From Tunavirus T1, in sequence record MN153797.1: a DNA stretch of 48,822 nt. One strand, 5' to 3'. Numbering within the stretch: position 1 is the first letter of the stretch; the number at the start of each line of letters is the position of its first letter. This document shows positions 8,960-35,903 of this stretch, in pieces. A program made the translations under genes and the position numbers. The notes beneath the pieces are model-generated. The model did not search any database. It worked only from the letters and a program-made list of their open reading frames with translations, and was not told the origin of the DNA.

Positions 8960-10528
8960 ATGATTCAATGGGAAGACCTTAACGCAACGCAGAAGTTAGC
9001 GATCAAGAAAATGAGCGAGGCCAATTTCGAAAAAATGATTCGGATCTGGTTCCAACTTATGCAGGCGCAGCAGTTCCAGCCTAACTGGCATCACCTTTAC
9101 CTATGTCACGAAGTGGAGGAAATTATTGCAGGGCGGCGAGGGAATACAATCTTTAACGTCACACCAGGTTCCGGTAAAACTGAAGTGTTCTCAATTCACC
9201 TTCCGGTGTACGCAATGCTTAAGTGTAAGAAGGTGCGAAACCTTAACGTGTCGTTTGCTGACAGCCTGGTTAAGCGTAACAGTAAGCGCGTATGTGAGAT
9301 TATCAGCAGCAACGAATTTCAAGAGCTATGGCCTTGCAAGTTCGGTACATCGAAAGATGAGGAGATGCAGGTTCTTAACGAAGATGGAAAGGTTTGGTTT
9401 GAGTTGATATCCGCAGCGGCTGGCGGTCGTATTACTGGTTCGCGTGGTGGCTACATGACGCCGGGATTCTCGGGGATGGTAATGCTAGACGATATCGACA
9501 AGCCTGATGATATGTTCTCAAAGGTTAAGCGTGAGCGTACGCACATGCTATTGAAAAACACCATCCGTTCCCGTCGTATGCATAACGAGACGCCTATTAT
9601 TGCAATTCAGCAGCGACTACATGCTCAGGATTCAACCTGGTTCATGATGAATGGCGGTATGGGTATTGAGTTTGACCAAATCTCAATACCGGCGCTGGTG
9701 ACGGAAGAATACGGAAAGACACTTCCTGATTGGTTGCAGCCTTACTTTGAGCGTGATGTTTTATCGTCTGAGTATGTAGAATTGGATGGCGTTAAGCATT
9801 ACTCTTTTTGGCCAAGCAAGGAAAGCGTTCACGACCTGTTGGCGTTACGAGAAGCAGATCAGTATACCTTTGATTCTCAGTATCAGCAGAAACCGATCGC
9901 GCTGGGTGGCTCCGTGTTTAACTCAGAGTGGTGGACTTATTACGGCAGCAGTCTTGACGCTGACGAGCCAGATCCGGGTAAATATGATTACCGATTCATC
10001 ACTGCCGATACCGCTCAGAAGACAGGCGAGCTAAACGACTACACGGTATTTTGTTTGTGGGGCAAGAAGAATGATAAGGTTTACTTTATCGACGGCATTC
10101 GCGGAAAGTGGGAAGCGCCGGATATGGAGAGGCAATTTACAGCTTTCGTCAATCAGGCATGGAGGCACAATAAATCAATGGGGGTACTTCGTAAAATTTA
10201 TGTGGAAGATAAGGCGAGCGGTACGGGCTTAATCCAGAACCTCAGGAAAAAGACCCCGATCTCAATCACTCCATTGCAGCGTAACAAAGACAAAGTTACC
10301 CGAGCTATGGATGCTCAGCCAGTTATTAAAGCCGGGCGCGTGGTTCTGCCAGAAGAGCACCCTATGCTTGCTGAAATTATCGCTGAACACAGTGCCTTCA
10401 CTTACGATGACACCCATCCGCATGATGATATCGTCGATAACTTCATGGATGCGGCGAACATCGAATTGCTGACCATTGATGATCCTATCGAGAGAATGAA
10501 GCGACTCGCCGGGATGGTTAAGCGGTAA
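8960..10528 (+). CDS. terminase large subunit
   Basis: 527-aa ORF with terminase-like ATPase and nuclease regions (family recognised from sequence); ATG 8960 has RBS gggaga, ORF-track start 8945 is the alternative. Confidence 0.75.
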   Translation: MIQWEDLNATQKLAIKKMSEANFEKMIRIWFQLMQAQQFQPNWHHLYLCHEVEEIIAGRRGNTIFNVTPGSGKTEVFSIHLPVYAMLKCKKVRNLNVSFADSLVKRNSKRVCEIISSNEFQELWPCKFGTSKDEEMQVLNEDGKVWFELISAAAGGRITGSRGGYMTPGFSGMVMLDDIDKPDDMFSKVKRERTHMLLKNTIRSRRMHNETPIIAIQQRLHAQDSTWFMMNGGMGIEFDQISIPALVTEEYGKTLPDWLQPYFERDVLSSEYVELDGVKHYSFWPSKESVHDLLALREADQYTFDSQYQQKPIALGGSVFNSEWWTYYGSSLDADEPDPGKYDYRFITADTAQKTGELNDYTVFCLWGKKNDKVYFIDGIRGKWEAPDMERQFTAFVNQAWRHNKSMGVLRKIYVEDKASGTGLIQNLRKKTPISITPLQRNKDKVTRAMDAQPVIKAGRVVLPEEHPMLAEIIAEHSAFTYDDTHPHDDIVDNFMDAANIELLTIDDPIERMKRLAGMVKR

Positions 10529-19528: not shown

Positions 19529-19547
19529 GTATATAGGGGGGGGTTAT

Positions 19548-25043: not shown

Positions 25044-28000
25044 ATGATTCAAAAAGTGATAAGCGGATCTAAAGGTGGGTCACAGAAGCCTCATAACCCA
25101 GTTGAGATGGAGGACAATCTAATCTCAATCAACAAAATCAAGATCCTGTTAGCTGTATCTGATGGTGAAATTGACGAAACATTCAGCCTGAAGCAGTTGA
25201 TGTTTAACTCAGTCCCGGTGCAAAACGAGGATGGCTCATTTAACTTCGAGGGAGTAAAGGCAGAGTTCAGACCTGGGACGCAGACTCAGGAATATATCAA
25301 GGGAATGGAAGATAGCTCTAGTGAGGTAACTGTAAATCGTGAGGTTACTACCGATAACCCATACACAATCTCAGTAACCAACAAAACGCTGTCGGCAATC
25401 CGTATCAAAATGTTCATGCCTCGCGGCGTACGAATTGAAAGTAACGGTGATAAAAATGGCGTAAGAGTTGAGTATGAGGTGCAACAAGCTGTTGATGGCG
25501 GCTCGTTTGAGACGGTGCTCACCGATGTAATCGAAGGCAAAACAATGTCAGGTTACGATCGGAGCAGACGTGTAAACCTACCTAACTTCAACAATCAGGT
25601 GATATTCAGAGTGGTTCGGAAAACTCCAGACTCTAACGACTCGAACGTTGTTGACGCGATTCAGGTAAAGAGCTATGCCGAGGTGATTGATGCCAAATTC
25701 CGTTATCCGCTGACTGGTCTTCTTTTTGTCGAGTTTGATTCGAAGATGTTCCCAAACCAGTTACCTACGATCTCAATTCGTAAGCGCTGGAAGATTGTAA
25801 ACGTTCCGTCAAACTATGATCCAGAATCACGAACTTATAACGGAAATTGGGATGGAACTTTTAAGAAGGCATGGACGAATAATCCGGCCTGGGTGCTTTA
25901 TGACCTGATGATTAATCAGCGTTATGGCTTGGATCAGAAAGAGCTTGGTATCGCTGTAGATAAATGGGCGCTCTACGAGGCTGCGCAATATTGCGATCAG
26001 ATGGTTCCTGATGGGAAGGGCGGGACGGAACCTCGATACCTTTGCGACGTGATAATCCAGTCTCAGACTGACGCTTACAAGGTTATCCGAGATATTTGCT
26101 CAATCTTTCGTGGTATGAGCTTTTGGAATGGTGAGAGCATTTCGGTAATCATCGACAGGCCGCGTGAACCTGCGTACATCTTCACTAACGACAACGTTGT
26201 TAATGGTGACTTCTCCTACACGTTCGCAAGCGAAAAGAGCATGTACACGACGTGTAATGTGATGTTTGATGATGAACAAAACATGTATCAGCAGGACGTT
26301 GAGCCAGTATTCGATCGTGAGGCTACTCTACGGTTTGGGAACAACGTTACGAGCATTACAGCGATCGGTTGCACACGTCGAAGCGAGGCCAACCGACGCG
26401 GGAGATGGATTCTGAAAACTAACCTCCGCAGCACTACGGTAAACTTCGCTACCGGGCTTGAGGGCATGATCCCGACAATCGGAGATGTTGTGGCAATAGC
26501 TGATAACTTCTGGTCAAGTAACTTGACAATGAACCTGTCAGGGCGTTTGCTCGAAGTGTCTGGAAGTCAGATTTTCTTGCCGTTCCGGGTGGATGCACGC
26601 GCTGGTGACTTTATTATCGTAAATAAGCCAGATGGCAAGCCTGTGAAGCGCACAATCTCAAGTGTTAGTGCGGATGGTAAGACTATAGAGGTTAACATTG
26701 GCTTTGGCTTTCCTGTGAAGCCTAACACGGTATTCGCTATCGACCGCACCGACATTGCGTTACAGCAGTACGTCGTGACAAAAATCGATAAGGGCGATGA
26801 TGATGAGGAATTTACCTACAAAATAACGGCGGTGGAGTACGATCCTAACAAGTATGATGAGATTGATTACGGAGTTAACATCGACGACCGACCGACGAGC
26901 ATCGTTGAACCAGATCAGATCCCTAGACCGAAAAATGTGCAAGTATCCTCAGAGTCGAGAATCGTCCAGGGGATGAGCGTAGAAACGATGATTGTTAGCT
27001 GGGATAAAGTTCCGTACGCTGTTTTCTATGACGTCCAGTGGCGAAAGGATAACGGCAACTGGCAAAATGTACCGCAGACAGCAAACAAAGAGGTATACGT
27101 TGAAGGTATTTACGCTGGCAACTATCAGGTTCGCGTTCGCTCAGTCGCTGGTTCGGGCACGACTTCAGGCTGGTCAAATATCGTCGCGGCAACGTTGACG
27201 GGTAAACAGGGTGAACCGGGCCGACCGATTAACCTCACAGCTACGGATGATGTTGTTTTTGGTATCCGTACAAAATGGGGGTTCTCTGATGGTTCTGGAG
27301 ATACAGCCTATACAGAGTTGCAACAGTCACCGGATGGAACAGTGGATAACGCAAGTTTGCTTTCTTTGATTCCGTATCCGCAGCATGAGTATTATCACTC
27401 ACCAATGCCTGGAGGGAATATTGTTTGGTATCGGGTAAGGATGGTTGACAGGATCGGTAACGTGTCTCAGTGGACTGATTTTGTCAGAGGTATGGCATCA
27501 ACAAACGTTGACGATATCATTGGGGAGATTTCTGTTGATATCGAAAACTCACCTGGTTACGAGTGGCTTGTTGATAACGCAACAGACAACGCGGCGCAGA
27601 ACTCAGCTAACGCAGAGGCAGCAATAGAAAACGCGCTCGCCAATGACAAAGACGCGATCTACATGAAGAAGGAGAACGGAAAACGAAAAGCTGAGTACAC
27701 GAAATCACTGAAACTTATTGCTGATGAGACGCAGGCACGAGTGACGGCGATCGAGCAATTGAAGGCAAGTTTTGGCGATCAGATTAGCGCTAGCAACAGC
27801 GAGCTGCGTGAGGTTATCGCAACCGAGACTGAAGCACTATCGCGTGAGATTGACCAGCTTAAGGCTCAGATTGGTGACGATATTCAGGCAAGTCTGACTG
27901 ATATTCGGGAGGTTATCGCAACCGAGACTGAAGCACTATCGCGTGAGATTGACCAGCTTAAGGCTCAGATTGGTGACGATATTCAGGCAAGTCTGACTGA

Positions 28001-28562
28001 TATTCGGGAGGCTATCGCGAACGAGACTGAGGCTAGAACGCAAGCTGACTTAACACTTAGCGCGCGGCTTGGAAATAACGAGGCGGCACTTGCTCAAAAA
28101 CTAGACTCGTGGAGTAACGCGGATTCTACTGGTGCAATGTACGGTGTCAAGTTGGGTCTGAAATACAACGGCCAGGAATACAGTGCAGGCATGGCTATGT
28201 CTCTAGTTGGTTCCGGAGCTGCGGTTAAGGCGCAGATTTTGTTTGAGGCGTCACGATTTGCCATCATGACTGGAATGAATGGTCAGACTCAGTACCCCTT
28301 CGTTGTTGAGAATGGTCAGGTTATTTTAAGTAGCGCGATTATCAAGAACGGATTCATCACCAACGCAATGATTGGAAACTTCATCCAGTCGAATAACTAT
28401 GTATTTAACCAGTCCGGATGGAGGCTTGACAAGGGTGGAACATTCGAAAATTGCGGAAGTGACGGTGAGGGTGCAATGAAGCAAACTAATACCACAATAT
28501 CTGTTAGGGATGCGAGTGGTCGCCTGAGGGTTCAGATTGGCAGGTTGACTGGCTCATGGTAA
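25044..28562 (+). CDS. central tail fiber / host specificity protein (lambda J-like)
   Basis: 1172-aa ORF after M-L-K-I block; contains in-frame 99-bp tandem repeat. Confidence 0.8.
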   Translation: MIQKVISGSKGGSQKPHNPVEMEDNLISINKIKILLAVSDGEIDETFSLKQLMFNSVPVQNEDGSFNFEGVKAEFRPGTQTQEYIKGMEDSSSEVTVNREVTTDNPYTISVTNKTLSAIRIKMFMPRGVRIESNGDKNGVRVEYEVQQAVDGGSFETVLTDVIEGKTMSGYDRSRRVNLPNFNNQVIFRVVRKTPDSNDSNVVDAIQVKSYAEVIDAKFRYPLTGLLFVEFDSKMFPNQLPTISIRKRWKIVNVPSNYDPESRTYNGNWDGTFKKAWTNNPAWVLYDLMINQRYGLDQKELGIAVDKWALYEAAQYCDQMVPDGKGGTEPRYLCDVIIQSQTDAYKVIRDICSIFRGMSFWNGESISVIIDRPREPAYIFTNDNVVNGDFSYTFASEKSMYTTCNVMFDDEQNMYQQDVEPVFDREATLRFGNNVTSITAIGCTRRSEANRRGRWILKTNLRSTTVNFATGLEGMIPTIGDVVAIADNFWSSNLTMNLSGRLLEVSGSQIFLPFRVDARAGDFIIVNKPDGKPVKRTISSVSADGKTIEVNIGFGFPVKPNTVFAIDRTDIALQQYVVTKIDKGDDDEEFTYKITAVEYDPNKYDEIDYGVNIDDRPTSIVEPDQIPRPKNVQVSSESRIVQGMSVETMIVSWDKVPYAVFYDVQWRKDNGNWQNVPQTANKEVYVEGIYAGNYQVRVRSVAGSGTTSGWSNIVAATLTGKQGEPGRPINLTATDDVVFGIRTKWGFSDGSGDTAYTELQQSPDGTVDNASLLSLIPYPQHEYYHSPMPGGNIVWYRVRMVDRIGNVSQWTDFVRGMASTNVDDIIGEISVDIENSPGYEWLVDNATDNAAQNSANAEAAIENALANDKDAIYMKKENGKRKAEYTKSLKLIADETQARVTAIEQLKASFGDQISASNSELREVIATETEALSREIDQLKAQIGDDIQASLTDIREVIATETEALSREIDQLKAQIGDDIQASLTDIREAIANETEARTQADLTLSARLGNNEAALAQKLDSWSNADSTGAMYGVKLGLKYNGQEYSAGMAMSLVGSGAAVKAQILFEASRFAIMTGMNGQTQYPFVVENGQVILSSAIIKNGFITNAMIGNFIQSNNYVFNQSGWRLDKGGTFENCGSDGEGAMKQTNTTISVRDASGRLRVQIGRLTGSW
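27811..28008 (+). repeat. Perfect 99-bp tandem duplication (2 copies plus a diverged partial third) inside the J-like gene
   Basis: Unit aggttatcgcaaccgagactgaagcactatcgcgtgagattgaccagcttaaggctcagattggtgacgatattcaggcaagtctgactgatattcggg repeats at 27811 and 27910; encodes the same 33-aa segment twice. Confidence 0.85.
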
Positions 28563-28913: not shown

Positions 28914-29602
28914 TGTCATACGGTGCTTTTATAGATGTAAACGGAAACCCATTCATAACCCCGTTATCCACGCCATTCGCTTTATATGCGAGAGGGGAAA
29001 TTCAATCAGTAAATGTTAGTGGTTCACAGGTTGCGGAGAGATACGTTCGGATACCTACAGGTGTTCCGGTTATAGCTTTTTGCAAAACAACAAACACGCA
29101 GCAGGGGACCGCGCTTTCAGCCTTTACTTTCAGAAGCGGACCCAATGTTGGAACTGTTTATATAAGGGGGACAAATCCAGCAAAACAATCATACACGCTA
29201 ACATACTACATATTTGCCATATTTGAGCAGTCACTACCGAGATGGGGTATGGCAATATGGGATGCGACAGGAAAGCTAGTGCTGACAAATGAGACAAAAG
29301 TCCTTAGTGATTTGGTTACAATCGGCACTCCTGGATACGCTGGCGGTGGATTAAACATAGACACAACACTCAGCGGAAGCTACGCGGTTGTTCCAACTAT
29401 ACTTGGCAACTATCAAATTGTTATTGGAAGGTTGCCAACTGGGCAACCAATAATAGGAAACTCAACAGCAGGCAGTTCATGCAGGTACAACGGGAGCACA
29501 ACGAGAATAAATGCAGCAGCAACCACTGCGGCAGGTCAGATAATGAACACAGCGAATAATGGAAATATTATAACAGCAATCAAAACGGCAGCATACGACT
29601 AA
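28913..29602 (+). CDS. tail-associated hypothetical protein (possible fiber or receptor-binding accessory)
   Basis: ORF track; Gly/Thr/Asn-rich; paralogous N-terminus. Confidence 0.45.
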   Translation: MSYGAFIDVNGNPFITPLSTPFALYARGEIQSVNVSGSQVAERYVRIPTGVPVIAFCKTTNTQQGTALSAFTFRSGPNVGTVYIRGTNPAKQSYTLTYYIFAIFEQSLPRWGMAIWDATGKLVLTNETKVLSDLVTIGTPGYAGGGLNIDTTLSGSYAVVPTILGNYQIVIGRLPTGQPIIGNSTAGSSCRYNGSTTRINAAATTAAGQIMNTANNGNIITAIKTAAYD

Positions 29603-32211: not shown

Positions 32212-32634
32212 ATGCATATTATCACTGGCGAGATCCGCAAAGAACCAAAGATTCTTGAACGTAACGGCGGCAATACTTATATTATCGAACTGGCAGAAAG
32301 CTATAAGCCTCGTGATGGCGATCGCGAATACACCAACTACACGTTCTTTTTTAGCGACGGTGGGAAGCCAGGCCTTGCTGACTGGTATCGTGAAGCGTTC
32401 CAAGTTGGTCGAGTTATCTCAGTATCGTGCGAGACGTTGAAGATCTCATCACGCGAACACAACGGAATGATTTACAATTCATTGCAGGCGGCTGACTTCC
32501 CTAAACTAGTATTTAGTCAACGAGGTCAAAGCAACCAGCAACAACGAGCGCCTCAGCAACAACAGCGTTCTCAGCAGCAATCACAACCAAAACCAAATCA
32601 ACAATCAACATTTGACGACGATATTCCATTCTAA
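32212..32634 (+). CDS. ssb: single-stranded DNA-binding protein
   Basis: OB-fold-sized N-terminus, Gln-rich linker, C-terminus DDDIPF (canonical SSB tail). Confidence 0.75.
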   Translation: MHIITGEIRKEPKILERNGGNTYIIELAESYKPRDGDREYTNYTFFFSDGGKPGLADWYREAFQVGRVISVSCETLKISSREHNGMIYNSLQAADFPKLVFSQRGQSNQQQRAPQQQQRSQQQSQPKPNQQSTFDDDIPF

Positions 32635-32640
32635 AGAGAA

Positions 32641-32662
32641 GCCCCGCATTGCGGGGCTTTTT
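32641..32662. terminator. Bidirectional terminator between convergent ssb and tail fiber
   Basis: gccccgc-att-gcggggc then TTTTT. Confidence 0.6.
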
Positions 32663-32695
32663 ATTACTTCATCTCAATTGCCTTCGGAAATGAGT

Positions 32696-34312
32696 CTACG
32701 TATTTTTTAAGCTTTCAACAAACTCTCCAGATACCATTCTTTCATGATTTCTTTTGCACTCTTCAACCTTCTTGTTGTAAATCGAGTCATTAGGCATCTC
32801 AACTCGAACGCTAACAAAAACATCACTCGGAATGTCAATAGGATCTCCGTCGCTATACCCATCCTTATGATTTCTTGCGAATGAAGGCGCGTTATCATGA
32901 GTTCTATGATAAGTCTTGATAACCAAAGACCCATCAGGGTTAACATCATAATCTACCCACAATATAGGCTGTCCGTTAATGTCTTTTGGTATCTCTATGC
33001 CACCATTAACACCACCCCACGCTAGATCAGAATTTAGTGATAAACACCCCCTTATCAAATACTCGCCAGTAGAAATCCTCTCAACTGTACAACCTTCGCT
33101 CTCGTCGTTTGTTCTATGGCTCCCGTTGCCAAAAATATCAACGATGGGCGAGGCTCTTTTTATAAATCCGTTAGAGTCAACGGTTGTATTGCCTGTATTC
33201 CATATAACCTGGGTAGATTGCCATTGCCCCGCTCCTGTCTGTTTTCTGAGCCTCACATCCTTATAGTGTGGAGAGGTCATTGATGCGTCTTCAATAACAA
33301 AACCGAAAGCACTACCATCTCCTTGACCGTTTCTATGACGAACAGATATAGCTGTGACCCATCCAACAGAATTAACATTGTAACTTGCAAGGCTGCTAGG
33401 CTGAGATGATAAGGCGTTAACATAATCTACCCAGCTTGATTTCTCGTTAGATGCCGGACTTGATACAACGTTACCGGAAGAACTTGCCTGAAACGGTATC
33501 CACGGAGAAAACTTTGCATTATTGCCGTTTTTCATCCTTATGTAAAAAGTGCCGCGACCCGCTCTTGCGTATTCGTTTTGAGAATTTCCAGATTCTGGGT
33601 CAGTACCCAAATAAGTAAAAGGCGTAAATCTCTGAATGCAAGCGCTTGCACCGTTAGCTCCATTAGGAAGAACCTCAAGCATACCTGCCGTAGCCTCAGG
33701 ATAGCCCCTACTAGCGGTAGCTAAAGCACTTGATGATTGCATATATATTCCAGGGCCATCACCTTCACCAGTTATTGAATCAAGATGTTTTTCCCCTAAG
33801 TTAGTTCTATCAAGTTTGTAAACCTTTAGGCTTGTCCTTGCCTGCTCCTCGGTAGTTCCACCAGTGCCACCAAAATTAACCCCTAGAGCCTTGTTTTCAC
33901 TTCCATCATGAGTCATGGCGCCCCAGTCGCCGCTATCCTTGACGATCAGCTTAAATCCGGTCCTATCGTCATTTGAATAGATTTCCGTTAAATCTCCGCG
34001 AGGTTGATTTAATCTATTTACTGCTAGATTTTTCTTTGATTGCTCCTTGTCAGCAAGGCCAGAAAGATTTCCGTCCTTAGTTAAAAGATTGTCAGCATTA
34101 ACGCTATTTGCTGCGTCCTGAGCTTCCTGAGCACTTACCGCTGCCGCGTCTTTAGCGCTAACCGCCGCATCGCGTGCTGCCTGGGCATCGTTTTTTGCTG
34201 AGGTTGCAGTTTGCGCCGCAGTCTGAGCATCATTAACATAGCCAGATAGATCGCCTTTAGCGTCATTAATTTCTTGAACGATATTGTTCAGTGTCCATAT
34301 CAAGATCGGCAA
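32696..34312 (-). CDS. tail fiber protein, C-terminal fragment (no ATG, no RBS; TTG is the first in-frame start)
   Basis: 538-aa ORF; N-terminus repeats the C-terminus of 34412..34867; Ala/Gln-rich coiled region then Gly/Ser/Asn-rich distal domain. Confidence 0.6.
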   Translation of the reverse strand: MPILIWTLNNIVQEINDAKGDLSGYVNDAQTAAQTATSAKNDAQAARDAAVSAKDAAAVSAQEAQDAANSVNADNLLTKDGNLSGLADKEQSKKNLAVNRLNQPRGDLTEIYSNDDRTGFKLIVKDSGDWGAMTHDGSENKALGVNFGGTGGTTEEQARTSLKVYKLDRTNLGEKHLDSITGEGDGPGIYMQSSSALATASRGYPEATAGMLEVLPNGANGASACIQRFTPFTYLGTDPESGNSQNEYARAGRGTFYIRMKNGNNAKFSPWIPFQASSSGNVVSSPASNEKSSWVDYVNALSSQPSSLASYNVNSVGWVTAISVRHRNGQGDGSAFGFVIEDASMTSPHYKDVRLRKQTGAGQWQSTQVIWNTGNTTVDSNGFIKRASPIVDIFGNGSHRTNDESEGCTVERISTGEYLIRGCLSLNSDLAWGGVNGGIEIPKDINGQPILWVDYDVNPDGSLVIKTYHRTHDNAPSFARNHKDGYSDGDPIDIPSDVFVSVRVEMPNDSIYNKKVEECKRNHERMVSGEFVESLKNT

Positions 34313-34330
34313 TAATATCCATGCCGATGC
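34197..34330. repeat. Direct repeat copy A (134 bp) of tail fiber coding sequence
   Basis: Matches 34418-34555 except three small indels (agt/tgag, gtg/gttg, cca/ccaa). Confidence 0.8.
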
Positions 34331-34355
34331 AGATTAGTGATAGCCTTGTCGGTTG

Positions 34356-34402
34356 CTGAATAAATAAAAAAAATAGGGGCCCCCCCCCCCTTTTTTATTC
34401 AG
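34356..34402. other. Palindromic element ctgaataaa-taaaaaaaa-tagggg-C11-ttt-tttattcag between the two repeat copies
   Basis: Inverted arms 34356-34364 and 34394-34402; homopolymers A8, G4, C11, T6 read directly. Confidence 0.8.
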
Positions 34403-34411
34403 ATAGACACG

Positions 34412-34867
34412 TCACGTGCTGAGGTTGCTGAGTTGCGCCGCAGTCTGAGCATCATTAACATAGCCAGATAGATCGCCTTTAGCGTCATTAATTTCTTGAA
34501 CGATATTGTTCAGGTTGTCCATATCAAGATCGGCAATAATATCCAATGCCGATGCGATCTCAGTCTCTTTGCTCTGGTAGTACCGAAGCGTCTCAGCGAC
34601 GTTTTGCGCAAGACCGTTAACGGTCAATGAATCGTTAAGCAAGATCACATACTTACCGTCAGCGGCAGTCTGACCATCCGTAGAGATAGCCTTTAGCTCT
34701 GTGTCGCTCACAATGTCGCTGATTACCGCCAGTTTAATTGGTTGCTCCAGGAATACGATAGTTGCACCGACTCGAATCAGAGCAAGCTGATCTTTCCATT
34801 TTGTATCGGTTCCGTGAACCGTACCGTCTGCATCCATTGATGCAGTACCGCGTCTATATAAAGCCAT
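34412..34867 (-). CDS. tail fiber protein, N-terminal fragment (151 aa) ending just after repeat copy B
   Basis: ATG 34867 with RBS aaggag; C-terminal ..LNNIVQEINDAKGDLSGYVNDAQTAAQ duplicated at start of 32696..34312. Confidence 0.55.
   Translation of the reverse strand: MALYRRGTASMDADGTVHGTDTKWKDQLALIRVGATIVFLEQPIKLAVISDIVSDTELKAISTDGQTAADGKYVILLNDSLTVNGLAQNVAETLRYYQSKETEIASALDIIADLDMDNLNNIVQEINDAKGDLSGYVNDAQTAAQLSNLST
34418..34555. repeat. Direct repeat copy B (138 bp) of tail fiber coding sequence
   Basis: See copy A. Confidence 0.8.
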
Positions 34868-34888
34868 AGTATAAACTCCTTAAGTAAA

Positions 34889-34935
34889 TAGCACGAATTG
34901 CTAAGCAATGATTTTATCATTGTGATACCTGCCTT
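34889..34935 (-). promoter_or_regulatory. Sigma70-like promoter for tail fiber (minus: TTGCAA, 17 bp, TAAAAT) with box tagcacgaattgcta over the predicted start site
   Basis: Read on minus strand: cattgcaaggcaggtatcacaatgataaaat then box at 34889-34903. Confidence 0.45.
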
Positions 34936-34944
34936 GCAATGGGC

Positions 34945-34968
34945 AATAAAAAACCGCCCGAAGGCGGT
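34945..34968 (-). terminator. Rho-independent terminator after primase gene
   Basis: Minus strand: accgcc-ttcg-ggcggt then TTTTTTATT. Confidence 0.65.
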
Positions 34969-35903
34969 TAGAGTAGGTCACTTGCTGAGAATAATTTGGC
35001 TTGCATTCCTGAGCGGTATCCTCCGGGATTCGGTATGATTATTTTTAATTGTCTGTCGTCTGCCATGTACAAGGTATCCTTGTCTGAAGGTTCACACGCC
35101 ATCCTTACCTCTCGATCACCTTTATACCTGTATGCAACCATTTCGAGGTTTTCAGGGGTGAAGCAGGCCCATACCTCTTGCTTTGTGTGAAATGCAATAT
35201 GCTGAGCATCAATCCAGTTAAGGCATAAGTAGATCGCCTTTTCAGTTTTACCAGTCACGGCAACCGAGCAACTCGTGTATTTCTTCGCATAAAATGACTC
35301 TCTTCCTTCTTCATCAATAATCAAAATATTGCAAAACTCATCATCAAGCCCATCCTCGTGCACAAGTTGACACGGTATAGTGTGAAATACGCTCTCTCTT
35401 CCATCCTCGCTACGCTTTATACCGACATCGAATGATTCGGTGGGTAGTGACTCAAACACGCTCAACGGCGTATTTACACGTTTCTCTGTGCGCTCCATAA
35501 CCTTCATCACCGCCTCATGTTCAGCCATCATGACATTGACACCTGACACCGGAGTCCGGCGCGCTTTCTTGTTTGCCTTGACGATGTATTCCTGCGGAAC
35601 CTTTCCGAGAAATCTTCCCAGGATGTTTACGCATTCGCTGTACGGCATACCAGTCAACTTCATCAGCCAGCCAATACCAGAGTCGTTACCGCATGAGTTG
35701 CAGATCGCACCGCCGTCGCCCGGGGTGTTCAGGTTATCAGTCCAGCGAAATCGGTCTTTACCGCCGCAGTTGGGGCAGGGTTGGTGCTTCTTATTAAAAA
35801 CATTATTCGGCAATCCGCAGATTGATTGGAAAGCCTCGCGCCATAACCCCTTCATGTACGGTAAAACGTCCTCTTTCTGAAACATCATAAATTCTTCGTT
35901 CAC
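34968..35903 (-). CDS. DNA primase-like protein (zinc-ribbon)
   Basis: CPNCGGKDRF..CNSC zinc-binding motif near N-terminus. Confidence 0.5.
   Translation of the reverse strand: MNEEFMMFQKEDVLPYMKGLWREAFQSICGLPNNVFNKKHQPCPNCGGKDRFRWTDNLNTPGDGGAICNSCGNDSGIGWLMKLTGMPYSECVNILGRFLGKVPQEYIVKANKKARRTPVSGVNVMMAEHEAVMKVMERTEKRVNTPLSVFESLPTESFDVGIKRSEDGRESVFHTIPCQLVHEDGLDDEFCNILIIDEEGRESFYAKKYTSCSVAVTGKTEKAIYLCLNWIDAQHIAFHTKQEVWACFTPENLEMVAYRYKGDREVRMACEPSDKDTLYMADDRQLKIIIPNPGGYRSGMQAKLFSASDLL

Follow-up and report, generated by a model that had tools for sequence, protein, structure and literature searches.

Does the lateral tail-fibre gene of Tunavirus T1 break into two pieces around a duplicated segment, as the deposited sequence has it? 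The window analysed here, a stretch of 48,822 nt from sequence record MN153797.1, carries on its minus strand two fibre reading frames where a single gene would be expected. A sequence-only reading of this DNA had described a fibre gene split by an imperfect direct duplication of ~135 bp. It had left three explanations side by side: an assembly artefact from overlapping contig ends, a real tandem duplication, and a recombination-prone switch region. Our analysis indicates that the duplication is very probably an artefact of consensus building and not a feature of the phage. The phage itself probably makes one shortened fibre of 649 aa and not two fragments.

The split fibre locus and its direct repeat

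The locus (Table 1) lies between the primase gene and the SSB/Erf/exonuclease genes, and Pfam family PF25670 matches the fibre C-terminus. Megablast was run with window positions 32600-35000 as the query; relatives match only its first ~950 nt, a stretch that begins in the 3' end of the primase gene and extends ~800 nt into the fibre gene. This conserved N-terminus, variable distal part and location between primase and SSB/recombination genes are those of the lateral tail fibre family described for Drexlerviridae (PMC8594841).

The two minus-strand frames, of 151 and 538 aa, are as the sequence-only reading had described them. Its remark that the distal frame has neither an ATG nor an RBS also holds, with no Shine-Dalgarno motif found in the 25 nt upstream of the TTG (CTAATCTGCATCGGCATGGATATTA). 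By comparison with T1, residues 1-126 of the 151-aa ORF are the true fibre N-terminus, and the rest is translated from an artefactual block. Exact look-up in the protein collection returned no record of the 151-aa product, and likewise none of its 141-aa alternative-start version.

The near-identical direct repeats that had been reported at 34197-34330 and 34418-34555 do exist. A repeat search returned exact blocks of 81 nt (34211-34291 = 34433-34513), 30 nt (34292-34321 = 34516-34545) and 12 nt (34196-34207 = 34417-34428), spaced at 221-224 nt. Their near-identity far exceeds chance. Gapped alignment merges the blocks into copies of ~134 and 138 nt separated by an 87-nt spacer. The copies differ by small indels, as claimed, but by four events (+1, +2, -1, +2) and not by the three of 1-2 nt first counted. 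Collapsing the repeat in silico restored a single ORF of 649 aa, in line with the earlier estimate of about 650 aa.

Table 1. Features of the fibre locus in the window (positions are those of the whole stretch).
Feature	Coordinates	Strand	Basis or remark
Side (lateral) tail-fibre locus, homologue of T1 Orf26 / CPTT1_053	32696..34867	-	Megablast, collinear alignment, synteny, Pfam
151-aa N-terminal ORF	34412..34867	-	ATG start; ends at a TGA inside the artefactual block
538-aa C-terminal ORF	32696..34312	-	TTG start, without RBS; deposited as QEG04372.1, 'tail fibers protein [Tunavirus T1]'
Mosaic block, 222 nt in place of 237 reference nt	34266..34487	-	Alignment to T1
U, genuine upstream flank, equal to T1; true half of copy B	34488..34555	-	Ends at the inferred deletion junction
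D', displaced copy of the downstream flank, 71 nt; false half of copy B	34417..34487	-	Directly after ...GAAATTAA
Centre, 82 nt of degraded T1 sequence at collinear offsets (CGTGACGtGTCTATCTgAATAAAAAA; GCAGCAAccGACAAGGCTATCACTA)	34335..34416	-	Local alignment
U', displaced copy of the upstream flank, 69 nt, with 1-nt and 2-nt deletions; false half of copy A	34266..34334	-	Directly before TGACGCTAAAGG
D, genuine downstream flank, equal to T1; true half of copy A	34197..34265	-	Starts at the inferred deletion junction

A mosaic block at T1 reference coordinates

The megablast search returned three Escherichia phage T1 records (AY216660, NC_005833 and MK213796; 48,836 bp) at 99.4% identity, split into four pieces. 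Exact look-ups of its proteins identified the window as a GenBank deposit, 'Tunavirus T1' of 48,822 bp, whose proteins run from QEG04346 to QEG04378; this deposit is absent from the searched phage collection. Aligned to AY216660, the window is collinear from first to last base; the differences are 64 substitutions, a G7/G8 run at 19536 and, within the fibre gene, one rearranged block. Outside this block the fibre locus equals AY216660 32695..34881 save for two SNPs, one of which changes A to D. The sole structural difference is thus the 222-nt mosaic that replaces 237 nt (fibre codons 127-205) and leaves the locus 15 nt shorter than in the reference. In T1 the fibre (AAP49973.1; UniProt Q6XQB2, FIBER_BPT1) is a single ORF of 728 aa with the same position and flanking genes. 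Residues 127-205, 79 in all, are additional there; the window has two ORFs and the mosaic block instead. Since the reference fibre is 728 aa long, the collapsed 649-aa gene is a deletion allele and not the wild type. In a comparison with the fibre genes of related phages, which the sequence-only reading had proposed as a check, every close relative in the phage collection retains the 237-nt segment. Neither the 728-aa length of the reference fibre nor the nature of the spacer, which is degraded T1 sequence at its proper coordinate, can be seen without such a comparison.

The remaining point differences are lineage markers and not noise. Four of them (T1 positions 29184, 29416, 37795 and 40497) are common to the SRR7878517 lineage and one is common to SRR2167769. 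The record is thus of good quality elsewhere, with the garbling confined to one place. The lineage-specific proteins of the record were found in the NCBI record only, with no Logan assembly of the same sample. A 99-nt tandem repeat in a J-like gene of the window shows no comparable garbling, an observation that counts against a consensus artefact but is uninformative if the repeat is intact in this stock.

Within the block, matches to T1 fall into three overlapping parts. Block positions 0 to 71 match the downstream flank, 153 to 222 match the upstream flank, and 50 to 160 match the reference segment, shifted by +1 to +11. The overall order is U-D'-degraded centre-U'-D, such that each repeat copy is half genuine and half misplaced. 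Copy B is made of genuine U and D', and copy A of U' and genuine D; the two are reciprocal flanks of one U-D junction. All indels and mismatches between the copies fall within D' or U', in places where opening a short gap brings the sequence closer to the reference, and the genuine halves are identical to T1. D' runs for 55 nt as an exact copy and then becomes a hybrid of D and reference sequence (GCGCAACTCAGCAACCTCAGCA), resuming at position ~50 of the replaced segment and not at position 56 of D. On the opposite side, the reference yields to U' at the matching offset.

The centre is T1 sequence with about 10% errors plus homopolymer junk. The best local match of the spacer across the T1 genome is its collinear site, with a score of 46 against a shuffle maximum of 33. 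Inside the centre lies a palindromic AAAAAA-G11-C4-TA-T8 run with degraded T1 sequence on either side; because it is a G/C palindrome, a scan calls it a terminator-like hairpin on both strands. Followed outward from either anchored side, the centre ends as an A-run and then a G-run. On general grounds, these runs resemble the low-quality read tails of two-colour Illumina chemistry. Recognisable adapter sequence was absent from the centre: TruSeq and Nextera alignments matched the poly-A/poly-G tail only. An adapter origin was accordingly rejected, and the description was kept solely as low-quality read tails. The implied deletion junction had no exact match in viral_contigs or genome_contigs, and the poly-G junk had none in viral_contigs; the DNA of the junction, the junk and the duplication was absent from the other public sequences searched. 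These searches thus supplied no second DNA copy of the junction, and nothing in favour of a real duplication either.

Origin of the block

Mapping-based consensus genomes can show reference-bias artefacts at deletions. We consider it likely that the block is such an artefact, built in reference coordinates over a real in-frame deletion of 237 nt. The sequenced DNA, of a laboratory lineage of coliphage T1, would carry a clean loss of 79 aa in the Ala/Asn/Ser/Gln-rich fibre rod, joining ...NNIVQEI to NDAKGDLSGY... in a 649-aa fibre, with GTTCAAGAAATTAA directly followed by TGACGCTAAAGG at the DNA junction. The consensus would have been assembled in T1-reference coordinates, with junction-spanning reads aligned without opening a 237-nt gap. 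The 'missing' segment would then be overwritten at its start with the downstream flank (D') by left-anchored reads, and at its end with the upstream flank (U') by right-anchored ones. Reference-like bases and low-quality poly-A/poly-G read tails would fill the middle, where coverage was lacking. The outcome, U-D'-junk-U'-D, would mimic a direct duplication of 135 nt with an 87-nt spacer, frameshifts and a stop. We infer both the pipeline used and the status of the deletion as the dominant allele in the stock.

This process was simulated with error-free 150-nt reads from T1 minus the 237 nt, forced end-to-end onto the reference with small gaps only. The consensus was called by majority, with reference fill where coverage was absent. 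Flank overhangs of ~65-75 nt arose from each side; the overhang length in the block fits reads of ~150 nt. Two details of the window reappeared in the simulation: the hybrid string GCGCAACTCAGCAA and, at GGAC..CTGAACAA, the 2-nt deletion of U'. Identity of the window block was 186/222 to the simulated consensus, compared with 148/222 to the reference segment. The switch from D' to reference sequence with coordinates kept points to a pile-up in reference coordinates; nothing else does that. Reference sequence persists at reference coordinates through the block and the length of the interval is preserved (222 against 237 nt). Together, the anatomy of the block and the simulation indicate that reads from a deletion allele were piled onto the T1 reference. 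Reciprocal flanks in the deleted interval, aligner-induced indels and a reference-filled middle are shared with known reference-bias artefacts, from which the window differs in having a centre noisier than plain reference fill.

The noise of the centre counts against the artefact model in its simplest form, in that pure reference fill predicts a perfect T1 centre. Extra noise must therefore be assumed, whether from junk tails, iterative remapping or a minor wild-type sub-population. The last of these leads to a compatible variant of the same explanation, in which the lysate held a mixed stock of 728-aa and 649-aa alleles and the consensus blended them. Wild-type and several deletion alleles do coexist among T1 data sets, and the centre of the block still contains reference-like sequence. 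However, wild-type reads would give an error-free reference centre, which is not observed, and reference fill accounts for the same remnants without a second population. We regard a mixed stock as possible but unlikely.

Overlapping, error-prone ends of a de novo contig, left in when a circularly permuted genome was rotated to the T1 start, are an improbable source. The ~135-nt repeat is near common assembler k-mer overlaps, the centre resembles contig-end junk, and record and reference start at the same base, which implies some re-linearisation or reference use. Yet a contig-end overlap would be exact and abutting, unrelated to reference coordinates, whereas the copies here carry four indels and are separated by the 87-nt spacer. 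T1-reference sequence in the spacer, the distal part of D' at reference coordinates, and a block length within 15 nt of the replaced segment would all have to be coincidence. K-mers common to D and the reference segment reach ~6 nt at most, and a de Bruijn path cannot pass from one to the other at the point where the window does. The sequence-only reading was therefore right about the kind of explanation, an artefact, but not about contig-end overlap as its mechanism.

A real rearrangement, in which the phage DNA holds duplication and spacer and the truncated fibre is tolerated on rough laboratory hosts, is highly improbable. It has a precedent in laboratory lambda, whose side fibres were lost by frameshift. 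The lateral fibres of Drexlerviridae are also thought to bind O-antigen reversibly and to be dispensable for host recognition (PMC8594841). In laboratory-adapted T1, cryo-EM revealed no density for lateral fibres, and the same study remarks on the side fibres of laboratory-adapted T1, lambda and T5 (PMC11945409). Against this, no single mutational event gives the order U-D'-degraded reference-U'-D with preserved coordinates. Nor would one swap complex sequence for G11C4 and T-runs of nearly equal length, or restrict errors to the non-native halves. A true tandem duplication would be a head-to-tail unit with one novel junction and no foreign spacer. Here, only ~135 nt of the 222-nt period is repeated, and the non-native spacer consists of degraded wild-type sequence and homopolymer junk. 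The tandem duplication offered by the sequence-only reading is not supported. Three clean deletion alleles found elsewhere (see below) are all in frame, which argues that the frame is kept. The sequence-only reading's conclusion, that no single protein can contain the distal fibre, holds for the record as written but not for the phage.

A programmed switch or recoding event (a phase-variable, DGR-like or invertible cassette, or translational bypass joining the ORFs) can practically be dismissed: tail fibres are frequent targets of diversity mechanisms and the spacer forms a terminator-like hairpin, but that hairpin is a mirrored homopolymer artefact and the only inverted repeat present, neither a reverse transcriptase nor an invertase nor flanking inverted repeats appear in the T1 gene list, the 728-aa ORF is uninterrupted in the reference and on 583 contigs, and the variant alleles are simple microhomology deletions. 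A language-model or otherwise generated sequence, prompted by the homopolymer degeneration, was also considered and rejected, since, whichever strand is read, the flank copies come before their sources, and the reference coordinates are kept.

Rod deletions in other T1 data sets and in laboratory phages

The fibre cluster at 90% identity comprises the wild type plus shorter forms from Logan assemblies of SRA runs. In addition to the 583 contigs with the uninterrupted wild-type fibre, three deletion alleles were found. A 640-aa form cut by the contig end (P0109, on an independent Logan contig of 47,707 nt; junction ...NNIVQEINDAKGDLSGY...) lacks 79 aa, residues 127-205. Its junction of IVQEI to NDAKGD is, at the protein level, exactly that implied twice in the window. 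This lineage has other private substitutions, in the fibre and in primase variant P0055, which is also on a 47,707-nt contig. A 649-aa form (P0105; SRR7878516/17/19) lacks 79 aa, residues 151-229, and joins ...DSANSA to KNDAQ.... A 656-aa form (P0110; SRR2167769) lacks 72 aa, residues 160-231, and joins ...ISIKN to DAQ....

At the DNA level, the P0105 and P0110 deletions are clean losses of 237 and 216 nt at the microhomologies TCAGC and AAAAAAC. These junctions are real, as k-mer assembly cannot create such short microhomologies. All three deletions are in frame, overlap one another and lie in the Ala/Asn/Ser/Gln-rich rod. They overlap the same stretch as the mosaic block, and one shares its junction. 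The SRA-derived alleles have uninterrupted ORFs with simple junctions at microhomologies of 2-7 nt, whereas the window shows two copies of the junction separated by junk. As the source of the 237-nt period, a repeat of 79 aa within the protein was considered and rejected: self-alignment of the fibre was significant, at 86 against 44±7, but its register was 93 aa and low complexity drove the score.

With this record counted, there are at least three junctions in four lineages, each at short microhomologies. We tentatively suggest that the rod (aa ~127-231) may be a deletion hot spot in laboratory stocks, where losses of 72-79 aa would arise independently and always in frame. Selection could possibly favour them if, on laboratory E. 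coli lacking O-antigen, a shorter fibre brings an advantage or a full-length rod a cost. The literature search returned nothing specific on the record, the SRA runs or T1 fibre deletions. The recombination-prone switch region of the sequence-only reading holds only weakly, in that three different clean deletions of this stretch occur in other T1 data sets; nothing points to a programmed switch. If the rod is alpha-helical, the loss of 79 aa would shorten the fibre by roughly 10 nm, and the attachment and binding ends should be unaffected.

The practical consequence is a database correction. The GenBank T1 genome and QEG04372.1, now in UniRef, describe a truncated TTG-start fibre that as deposited almost certainly does not exist. 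Host-range prediction, fibre engineering or pan-genome work based on the record takes over a split gene and a terminator-like hairpin that are both false. In biological terms the result is modest, namely that clean in-frame shortenings of the lateral-fibre rod distinguish T1 stocks from one another. What T1 lateral fibres do has yet to be described (PMC13164509), and given also that no density was seen for them, these deletions offer a simple handle on whether rod length matters.

If the suggestion of a hot spot is true, the rod deletions would be the T1 counterpart of the side-fibre changes of laboratory lambda and T5, with the receptor-binding tip preserved. Lambda PaPa carries a frameshift in stf and has lost its side fibres, and fibre-less T5 strains exist. 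Shared with T1 is a lateral fibre gene altered in a stock grown on rough laboratory E. coli. In lambda and T5 the change is a loss or alteration of the fibre, whereas the T1 alleles keep both the reading frame and the C-terminal binding domain, a shortening of the fibre and not its loss.

Substitution spectrum against the T1 reference

The 64 substitutions that separate the whole window from the T1 reference AY216660 are strongly uneven by class. C>A/G>T changes account for 33, followed by C>T/G>A (18), T>C (10) and T>A (3); neither T>G nor C>G occurs among the 64. Within the 76 intact T1-annotated CDSs that were checked, 53 nucleotide differences yield 42 amino-acid changes, a proportion that is roughly neutral. 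An excess of G:C>T:A was also seen in other T1 lineages, comprising 10 of 17 changes in L004 and 4 of 7 in L007, two T1 contigs from SRA-derived assemblies, and it recurs among the private primase changes of P0055, a primase variant from a Logan/SRA contig. The shared excess in the window and in these other lineages suggests a mutation spectrum in T1 stocks resembling that of oxidative damage (8-oxoG).

The sole dinucleotide change genome-wide produces R117C in the terminase large subunit (TerL). Exact look-up did not retrieve this TerL variant from the protein collection, which does contain nine of the record's other variant proteins. Outside the fibre block, the garbled mosaic within the lateral tail-fibre gene, the window has a single indel relative to the reference, a G8 run in place of G7.

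Coordinates of features in the window
Feature	Position	Remark
Substitutions (examples)	662, 1615, 37781, 40483	window vs AY216660
TerL double substitution	9292-9293	CC>AT, adjacent
G8 run	19536-19543	annotated RBS, immediately 5' of tape-measure gene start
J-like central fibre gene	25044-28562	
Tandem repeat	27807-28030	inside J-like gene; 99-nt period, 125-nt copies, 96.8% identical
Truncated fibre ORF	32696-34312	538 aa, TTG start

Truncated fibre ORF and T1-family proteins in databases

The truncated fibre ORF has been carried into NCBI nr and UniRef (QEG04372.1 and A0A5B9MTQ3), where it is named 'tail fibers protein'. Exact protein look-ups matched QEG04373, the accession between QEG04372.1 and the primase, to none of the 151-aa, 141-aa or 47-aa candidates. 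Protein clusters of the window genes also contain the same or near-identical T1-family proteins labelled as Ralstonia pseudosolanacearum, Pseudomonas aeruginosa, Klebsiella michiganensis or Acinetobacter assemblies. Such entries have the look of T1-like phage DNA that contaminated the sequencing of bacteria.

Fibre-gene lengths in other T1 data sets

The J protein is 1139 aa long in both L004 and L007, against 1172 aa, a difference corresponding to one unit less of the tandem repeat. This could reflect either true copy-number variation or a collapse of short reads. In the lateral fibre, three different clean in-frame deletions of 79, 79 and 72 aa were found in independent data sets (contigs L004-L007; SRR7878516/17/19 and SRR2167769). 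All three rod deletions have residues 160-205 in common, and contigs with the wild-type fibre number 583 compared with 9 for the deletion forms.
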